32,000 bases of DNA. It comes from Thermoproteus tenax Kra 1. GTDB taxonomy: Archaea; Thermoproteota; Thermoprotei; Thermoproteales; Thermoproteaceae. The notes under the pieces were generated by a model, which searched no databases, was not told where the DNA came from, and saw nothing but the letters and a program-made list of their open reading frames with translations. A program made the translations under genes and the position numbers. The stretch is from NCBI RefSeq assembly GCF_000253055.1, contig NC_016070.1, positions 60,001-92,000 of the forward strand, given 5' to 3'. Below are positions 244 to 15,722 of the stretch, piece after piece (within the stretch, counting starts at the first letter, position 1; each line of letters starts with the position of its first letter).

Positions 244-480
244 TGCCCGTTTATCCCTAGGCGCTCATTATTGACAACCTTTGACTCGCGCCCAGGGACT
301 TCCTCCTCGTCCGCGCCTTCACGGGCACCCGAGGTGCCTCCGGCGCGGCGCCATCGGGCATGGGGGGCAACGGCACTGCCCCCTCTCCTCCAGTCGGGGC
401 AGAGCCCCTCATGGAACTGCCCCTCACCGCCGTACACGTATTTAAGCCCTCCGCCCGCGCCGAAGACGCAGGGTTTTCCT
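244..480 (-). ncRNA. Candidate structured non-coding RNA of unassigned family, containing a K-turn and an RNase P CR-I-like motif
   Basis: No credible ORF is present. The minus strand folds into a chain of perfect or near-perfect helices: 472-467/459-454, 423-417/402-396, 383-377/369-363, 360-355/249-244, 350-308 and 299-253. Several G.U pairs would be C.A mismatches on the plus strand. The locus is GC-rich relative to flanking spacers. Confidence 0.5.
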
Positions 481-6913: not shown

Positions 6914-7126
6914 GTGATGGGGGAGGGGGGCGAGCCAAAAAACAATATGCTAAATTATACTTAAGCACAATCATAATACCAAGATTTCGTGAAAATATTA
7001 TAAAAACTAAAAAGATATTACTCTATAAAATTAAAAAATAATTTTAATAATAATTAAAATAAAATAAATTATTTTATATAGGATAAAGGAGGGAATATAT
7101 TTATAGGAAATTGACGTAGATGGCTT

Positions 7127-15391: not shown

Positions 15392-15411
15392 CCTATGTCT
15401 AGAGCGCCTGC

Positions 15412-15705
15412 GCGCCCGGCGGCCTTGGCTAAGGAAAGACGGCCGGACGTATGGATCTACAACCCAGCCGGATATGCTTCAGTTGAAAGGACATGGCGCC
15501 CTCGCTTTCAATCGCAGTGGAAGAACCCCTCATTTCAGAGTTCGTCGTCCTCTTCCGCGGGAGCGGCTCCAGCGGGAGAGGGGGAATGCCGCCGGCCCTC
15601 AAGGGCCCGATCCCCTCCGCGGCTGCCCTGACCGGATGGGCGCGGCCCCGAGCCCCGGGAATCGGGCAAGGAAAGGGGGGCTGTGGCCGACAAAGCTTTA
15701 TTACT
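15412..15705. ncRNA. Second candidate structured RNA locus (family and strand unresolved, slight preference for the minus strand)
   Basis: About 300 nt of GC-rich sequence is open in several frames, but the translations are low-complexity. Nested helices are 15440-15444/15685-15689, 15463-15471/15632-15640, 15479-15482/15628-15631, 15483-15489/15505-15511, 15514-15517/15623-15626, 15519-15524/15551-15556, 15557-15563/15615-15620 and 15594-15598/15603-15607. A minus-strand-specific hairpin at 15543-15523 has two G.U pairs and tandem G.A pairs. Confidence 0.4.
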
Positions 15706-15722
15706 TGCATTAACCTCCCCCT

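Follow-up and report, generated by a model that had tools for sequence, protein, structure and literature searches.

The 559-nt spacer between a tRNA-Val gene and a radical-SAM/SPASM gene of Thermoproteus tenax Kra 1 raises the question of whether its GC-rich, hairpin-dense DNA encodes a stable RNA that annotation has missed. An earlier reading of the letters (the original prediction) had proposed an unannotated structured RNA on the minus strand of positions 244–480. The spacer occupies positions 208–766 of the window, the whole 32-kb stretch of DNA that we analysed, and no gap in the window is longer. The radical-SAM/SPASM gene to its right (767–1876) encodes the product CCC80738.1/WP_014125996.1, and its ATG at 767 lies 15 nt past a TATA box at 743–752. 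Four more proteins of the window were checked and likewise gave exact matches. The start of this gene is placed in two ways: Logan contig gene calls put it at GTG 704 (390 aa), and the TATA box together with the NCBI annotation puts it at ATG 767 (369 aa), with a leaderless mRNA. At the left edge of the window, the minus strand of positions 1–67 holds the 5′ part of a tRNA-Met(CAU) gene, truncated by the window edge. The intron of this tRNA (about AGGGACGAAGUCCCGCGUAU) sits at a non-canonical position inside the 5′ strand of the anticodon stem, and because it splits that strand, the gene was missed by both ARAGORN and Rfam.

The spacer had been described as richer in GC than its neighbours, which the measured values bear out: 120-nt windows within it reach a GC fraction of up to 0.75, compared with a mean of 0.54 for the whole 32 kb and values of 0.15–0.64 in other spacers. 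Spacers 1877–1996 and 6914–7126 are extremely AT-rich (GC 0.15 and 0.24, respectively), which sets the composition of the candidate well apart from that of typical promoter spacers in this genome. The only other spacer as GC-rich as the candidate's is a second ORF-free island at 15392–15722, where GC rises to 0.77. This island has no match in Rfam or Pfam, and its ORFs are missing from the protein collection that we searched. A kinship between the two islands was considered and rejected, the likeness being marginal (equalled in 4 of 200 shuffles) and the hairpins not being preserved.

The claim that the spacer contains no credible ORF also stands, as we found neither the GC1/GC2/GC3 pattern of real genes nor a relative in any of the six frames. 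A small unannotated protein would have to come from an ORF at 198–437 on the minus strand (79 aa) or from one at 208–489 on the plus strand (93 aa). Both ORFs are present, and in the 79-aa ORF the second codon position is the poorest in GC. Their composition is rich in Pro, Arg, Gly and Ser, however, and neither exact ORF occurs in a protein collection that contains T. tenax proteins, which indicates that no gene has ever been called here in T. tenax; ORFs that overlap the tRNAs or lie in the rest of the spacer are likewise missing from that collection. We searched 5.8 billion clusters with the two ORFs and with a six-frame concatenate, the latter serving as bait for miscalled ORFs in relatives, and found no relative in any frame. 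Pfam holds no family for the ORFs of the region. The sole match of the 79-aa ORF among 1.84 billion representatives was to seven separate stretches of one 2766-aa protein, which we read as low-complexity noise. On these grounds we consider a small protein extremely improbable. The original prediction had also named a decayed protein gene as an outcome that would count against an RNA, and the six-frame search gives no such signal.

Folding of the region on the two strands

All of the helices listed in the original prediction for the minus strand of 244–480, and both of its long hairpins, pair as described (Table 1), and the five G.U pairs that it named become A.C on the plus strand. The minus strand of 244–480 has a minimum free energy (MFE) of −120.4 kcal/mol with a z-score of −3.4 against dinucleotide shuffles, and it is the most stable of 530 segments of 237 nt drawn from both strands of the 32 kb. 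It lies 3.5 sd below the GC trend, versus 0.9 sd for the plus strand. A control segment of the second GC-rich, ORF-free island (15400–15695) gave z-scores of +1.8 and +0.4 and thus no excess structure, so GC content by itself does not explain the fold signal. The signal of 244–480 is real and lies above chance.

The z-scores distinguish the strands poorly. Those of the minus and plus strands are −3.4 and −3.0 for 244–480, −3.9 and −3.4 for 208–766, and −3.5 and −3.6 for 244–423, which indicates that the minus strand owes much of its raw advantage to being rich in G. Equal z-scores on both strands would also be expected from palindromes at the DNA level. At the scale of 80-nt windows, the GC core at 260–420 is unexceptional, and within 244–480 only the hairpin HP5 (windows 220–319), with a local z of about −3, and the segment 360–439 stand out. 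Locally, the spacer folds most strongly outside 244–480, in a hairpin at 594–618 (AGCGCCGU/ACGGCGCU; context 560–640), where 80-nt windows reach z-scores of −4.6 and −5.7. Related strains carry a 5-nt insertion, AGCTC, near this hairpin, which could lengthen its stem by way of GAGCT at 620–624.

Table 1. Coordinates of the candidate RNA, its predicted parts and the neighbouring tRNA signals
Feature	Positions	Strand	Remarks
tRNA-Val(CAC)	134–207	minus	Found by ARAGORN and Rfam tRNA (65.5 bits); same strand as the candidate, downstream of it
tRNA-Val promoter box CTTAAAAATAG	227–237	minus	
Proposed structured RNA core, about 180 nt	244–423	minus	5′ domain 423–362 and 3′ three-way-junction domain 360–244
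Closing stem, 3′ strand	244–249	minus	Ends 7 nt before the tRNA-Val TATA box
HP5	253–299	minus	12-bp stem, tandem G.A (287.265, 286.266), two more pairs, 15-nt loop
HP4, kink-turn hairpin	308–350	minus	Read from sequence
Closing stem, 5′ strand	355–360	minus	6 bp; pairs with 249–244
HP3	363–383	minus	Stem GGGGGCA/UGCCCCC; pairs verified
HP2	396–423	minus	Stem GGGGCAG/CUGCCCC, two G.U and two C-G pairs, AUGA loop; pairs verified
TATA-like box CTTAAATA	439–446	minus	AT-rich islet in GC-rich DNA between HP1 and HP2, preceded by purine-rich GGAGGG
HP1	454–472		Placed on the minus strand in the original prediction; in the plus-strand reading, a hairpin followed by UUUU at 474–477

The single fold that had been proposed for the whole of 244–480 holds only in part. 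Its helices exist, but the complete arrangement scores −99 kcal/mol, well above the MFE. The MFE structure instead pairs 467–453 with 350–336, and a high pairing probability is reached by HP5 alone (0.99). The segment 423–244 on the minus strand has an MFE of −94.5 kcal/mol and a z-score of −3.5, and both its MFE and its centroid structures contain the closing stem, the kink-turn hairpin HP4 and HP5, which together form the three-way junction of the original prediction. The competing long-range helix is lost in this segment because its bases lie upstream of the predicted start of transcription (see below). In the 5′ domain, the arms of HP2 and HP3 are alike (GGGGCAG/CUGCCCC), which makes a nested alternative fold possible. 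The nested form has an energy of −34.9 kcal/mol versus −31.3 kcal/mol for the two tandem hairpins, and the two forms are mutually exclusive. The pair could therefore be a switch or merely a duplicated hairpin.

The kink-turn hairpin and a putative promoter

The sequence of HP4 contains every element of a kink-turn, namely a C stem, a 3-nt bulge, tandem sheared G.A/A.G pairs and an NC stem. The C stem (338–333/329–324) comprises 6 bp closed by a UCG loop and is followed by the bulged nucleotides C323, G322 and U321. Next come the sheared pairs G320.A339 and A319.G340, then A318.G341, and finally the NC stem (342–350/317–308) of 9 bp, in which A310 is bulged. The minus strand of the 32 kb holds no second copy of the motif. 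In shuffles of the 237 nt, a kink-turn with a C stem of at least 6 bp and an NC stem of at least 5 bp arose once in 3000 trials, and one with 6 bp in each stem arose in none of 3000, figures that overstate the significance because the motif was noticed post hoc. When the pattern is relaxed, shuffled sequence yields about 4.4 examples per 64 kb. For a hairpin that already has a 3 × 6 internal loop, GA/GA would by our estimate be rightly placed in about 1–2% of cases. The G.A pairs of the HP4 kink-turn become C.U on the plus strand, as do the tandem G.A pairs of HP5.

Archaeal kink-turns generally bind L7Ae. With its canonical stem, CGU bulge and tandem sheared G.A/A.G pairs, HP4 is like the L7Ae-bound, Kt-7-like hairpins of archaeal H/ACA, C/D and RNase P RNAs. 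It further resembles Kt-7-type kink-turns in having A.G at 3b.3n and C-G at −1, and its bulged strand has the GUGA of a C box. Unlike the kink-turns of archaeal sRNPs, HP4 has no companion boxes or pocket.

HP5 also bears a likeness to the tRNA-Met gene at the window edge. Its 5′ arm (GUCCCUGGGCGC, 287–298 vs 31–42) is a perfect complement of nt 28–40 of the pre-tRNA-Met, across the exon–intron junction, and its 3′ arm GAGCGCCUAGGGA (254–266) copies the tRNA-Met sequence GAGCGCCCAGGGA. The 12-mer complementarity is reached in 2 of 300 shuffles. The match may reflect chance, a tRNA-derived duplication or an antisense contact.

Upstream of HP2 on the minus strand lies the TATA-like box CTTAAATA, which resembles the box of tRNA-Val, CTTAAAAATAG, and is readable in either direction. 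In the leaderless genes of the window, the start codon lies 16–19 nt past the TATA box, and the same spacing from 446–439 leads to a predicted start at 423–420, the first bases of HP2. From this putative promoter we infer that transcription would begin at about G423–G420. At the other end, no run of four or more U occurs on the minus strand between 480 and 208, that is, no terminator precedes tRNA-Val, so a minus-strand transcript would read into the tRNA.

Dicistronic sRNA–tRNA transcripts of archaea have been described for C/D box sRNAs. As in these dicistrons, the candidate is followed immediately on its own strand by a tRNA, and no terminator separates the two. It is unlike them in that tRNA-Val has its own TATA box and the candidate is not a C/D box sRNA; co-transcription is in this case something that we infer.

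Relatives, strains and known RNA families

With the radical-SAM protein as query, genome and metagenome contigs yielded 141 loci, with a best identity of 78–79%. The nearest relatives of the protein among these loci are in Thermoproteus sp. CP80 (78%) and in hot-spring metagenomes; in CP80, other ORFs abut the radical-SAM gene upstream, and synteny is broken. Neither blastn nor nhmmer found DNA like 244–440 in any fetched locus, a single-sequence covariance model had no match in 41 Thermoproteaceae loci, and phage and plasmid collections as well as three viral-contig scans gave none. A family of REP-like repeats based on the palindrome GGGGCAG/CUGCCCC gained no support in the DNA covered, as the pair of arms is single in the window and missing from 145 loci. 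A further copy of the candidate as an interspersed repeat or MITE was likewise not found in the 32 kb or the 145 loci.

Exact look-ups of the radical-SAM protein of the window returned no record, and members of its cluster led to four Logan contigs (L142–L145). These contigs, from four independent runs, represent strains with about 97% protein identity by our estimate. Their left ends fall at 441, 479, 479 and 511, whereas their other ends are scattered; if contigs broke at random, ends would cluster in this way with a probability of about 1e-5 by our estimate. The clustered ends point to a diversity hotspot, a repeat, or a drop in coverage over the GC-rich hairpins, and the breaks at 441–511 as such hint at local variability or a repeat. 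Within 244–480, these contigs cover 441–480, where L145 differs from Kra 1 at 462, 467 and 473. With 3 changes in 40 nt, compared with about 3–4% in 481–703, no other part of the spacer varies as much in this strain. At 467, C is replaced by T, which disrupts an HP1 pair on the minus strand and yields a G.U on the plus strand. HP1 (472–467/459–454), which the original prediction had counted among the helices of the minus-strand RNA, therefore loses support as a part of it, in agreement with the predicted start at about 423. No other hairpin was seen to vary in a related strain; HP1 lies upstream of that start and is probably outside the RNA.

The same change is compatible with a functional, C-rich RNA of about 220 nt on the plus strand, which would start at about 253–257 from the tRNA-Val TATA box read in reverse and end at a hairpin followed by UUUU (454–477). 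The plus strand has T-runs at 474–477 and 659–662 and the minus strand has none, the L145 substitution preserves pairing as G.U on the plus strand only, and the plus-strand z-score for 244–423 is −3.6. There is also a weak, sub-threshold likeness to sRNAs with CCUCCUCCC motifs (ar14, E = 0.2; CcsR1, E = 6), and CCUCC-type motifs in such an RNA could pair with Shine–Dalgarno-like GGAGG. These Rfam matches are far below threshold, however, and the plus strand turns the kink-turn and tandem G.A pairs into C.U mismatches and the five G.U pairs into A.C. Its MFE falls just 0.9 sd below the GC trend, and no purine-rich stretch lies upstream of the reversed tRNA-Val TATA box. We consider an RNA on this strand quite unlikely.

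A stronger contender, though still a somewhat unlikely one in our judgement, is a spacer with no function at all, in which a rearrangement scar or decayed sequence marks a tRNA-linked break in synteny, the GC-rich palindromes arose by accident or have a role as DNA only, and no stable RNA is produced. Even CP80, at 78% identity, does not share the gene order upstream of the radical-SAM gene, and no fetched locus carries similar DNA. The strand-symmetric z-scores fit this explanation, the window contains another GC-rich, ORF-free spacer, and 441–480 is both the most variable part of the spacer in L145 and the place where the contigs of four samples break. Against it, the control spacer shows no excess structure, the six frames give no sign of a decayed gene, and one strand combines a well-placed TATA-like box with interior G.U pairs, tandem G.A pairs and a kink-turn close to consensus, a coincidence that would be hard to obtain by chance.

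If an RNA is encoded on the minus strand, it is not one of the kinds to which the original prediction had pointed: RNase P RNA, SRP RNA and the known archaeal sRNA families are all excluded. At the gathering thresholds of Rfam 15, tRNA-Val is the sole match in the 32 kb, and with lax filters (E ≤ 10) the best scores are 10–20 bits, compared with thresholds of 35–95. A member of a known family could have escaped the models, for instance a guide of the H/ACA-like or C/D kind, a tRNA rich in introns, or part of an RNase P or SRP RNA in rearranged or permuted form. By our own reading, GAGGAAGUCCC (306–296) and AGGGCUU (450–444) on the minus strand could pair, in permuted order, as a P4-like helix that has a bulged U, and HP4 looks like the top of an H/ACA(-like) guide (PMC4652768). 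The T. tenax genes for RNase P and SRP RNA sit elsewhere in the genome, however, no partial Rfam match to either RNA appears at E ≤ 10, and the region has no ACA triplet, C/D box pair or extra tRNA and only a chance level of bulge–helix–bulge (BHB) motifs. An escaped family member is thus very unlikely in our estimation.

The individual families were examined in turn. The type T RNase P RNA of T. tenax is reported at NC_016070 1226650–1226847 (PMC7191817), and we rejected this identity since the gene is elsewhere, no partial covariance-model match exists, and the two P4-like motifs are wrongly ordered. With the RNase P gene at another locus and no covariance-model match, we judge the likeness of GAGGAAGUCCC and AGGGCUU to CR-I and CR-V to be due to chance. 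The SRP RNA of T. tenax is permuted and circularised and lies between TTX_0683 and TTX_0684 (Plagens et al. 2015, PMC4731332). The candidate shares its organism with that RNA but differs from it in locus and in having no convincing BHB motif; SRP RNA, including the permuted form, was rejected on the grounds of its other locus, the lack of a covariance-model match at E ≤ 10 and BHB-like motifs at chance level. A circular RNA marked by BHB motifs was rejected for the same reason, such motifs being no commoner than chance. A C/D box sRNA was rejected as well: on both strands of 1–800, no RUGAUGA/CUGA pair occurs 30–80 nt apart, save a spurious one inside a tRNA, and the supplementary tables of the T. 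tenax C/D sRNA paper hold no sequence from the spacer. ARAGORN, run with introns of up to 250 nt and lowered thresholds, finds only tRNA-Val, which excludes a further tRNA within the reach of a test that would miss introns at non-canonical positions.

HP4 also has traits of the H/ACA(-like) guides. In these guides, a kink-turn or K-loop sits above a 10-layer GA stem, and an ACA or ANA box follows 14–15 nt 3′ (PMC4652768). Ten layers can be counted in HP4, from C348-G311 to A339.G320, and the pairs 349–309 and 350–308 extend the stem past the A310 bulge. The bases 14–15 nt 3′ of the stem are CCC/CCU, and no ACA triplet occurs on the minus strand of 208–480, which led us to reject a guide of this type. 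The candidate shares with the H/ACA-like pseudouridine guide sRNAs of Pyrobaculum (Bernick et al. 2012; PMC4652768) its organism family, as well as a hairpin that contains a kink-turn and a stack of three G.A pairs. It differs from them in having no ACA/ANA box or pseudouridylation pocket, and in that HP4 is part of a multi-domain RNA of about 180 nt, whereas the Pyrobaculum H/ACA-like sRNAs measure 60–70 nt.

Another parallel exists in the High-GC (Hgc) non-coding RNAs, which Klein, Misulovin and Eddy reportedly obtained in 2002 from screens for GC islands in hyperthermophiles. Rfam includes Hgc families. Like these RNAs, the candidate is an ORF-free GC island in the genome of a hyperthermophile with mostly AT-rich spacers. 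Unlike them, it has no sequence or structure match in Rfam, and the second GC island in the window carries no structure signal. The contrast in GC is also weaker than for the Hgc RNAs because the genome is 54% GC.

A possible L7Ae-type RNA beside tRNA-Val

The candidate region is ORF-free, GC-rich and exceptionally foldable, contains a consensus kink-turn hairpin and falls in no described family. These properties are still best read as originally proposed, as a structured RNA on the minus strand that annotation has missed. Three features of that strand now add to it: the kink-turn of HP4, the tandem G.A pairs of HP5, and a TATA-like box whose predicted start yields an MFE structure with a three-way junction. 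Even so, the RNA remains a candidate, and the z-scores do not separate the strands. We also counted against it the post hoc recognition of the kink-turn, the TATA-like element that reads either way, and the absence of a minus-strand terminator, together with a core (260–420) that is unexceptional at 80 nt and the contig breaks at 441–511. We tentatively put it at slightly below an even chance that the minus strand of 244–423 encodes an orphan structured small RNA of the L7Ae type, about 180 nt long and possibly co-transcribed with tRNA-Val.

In the scheme that we propose for such an RNA, a transcript would begin at about 423 on the minus strand, and its core of about 180 nt would fold into a 5′ domain, as HP2 and HP3 or in the nested form, and a three-way junction made up of the closing stem (360–355/249–244), the kink-turn arm and HP5. 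By analogy with known archaeal kink-turns, L7Ae could bind at the kink-turn arm, so that the RNA would act as the scaffold of a small RNP. The transcript would continue into tRNA-Val, which would also be transcribed from its own promoter. The RNA would then be freed in two steps, RNase P cutting at the 5′ end of tRNA-Val and the remainder being trimmed as far as the closing stem. The complete scheme, that of a lineage-specific, L7Ae-bound RNP of an undescribed class whose two-domain RNA of about 180 nt has a switchable 5′ domain and is freed from an sRNA–tRNA-Val precursor by the enzymes of tRNA processing, is in our view rather unlikely to be correct in all its parts.

The interpretation as a minus-strand RNA is thus plausible and somewhat strengthened, though unproven. 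It is directly testable, as 13.45 million small-RNA reads of T. tenax are published (Plagens et al. 2015, PMC4731332) and the kink-turn hairpin is suited to a simple binding assay. Should the region prove not to be transcribed, it would serve as a warning that a spacer may be GC-rich, full of hairpins and equipped with a kink-turn that looks perfect, and yet have no function. Essential RNAs of T. tenax have repeatedly been missed by annotation, among them the T-type RNase P RNA and the permuted SRP RNA. If real, the candidate would belong, as an orphan, to the familiar class of stable RNAs with kink-turns in hyperthermophilic archaea, and it would add to T. tenax an uncharacterised stable RNA that, by analogy, would probably function as an L7Ae RNP.
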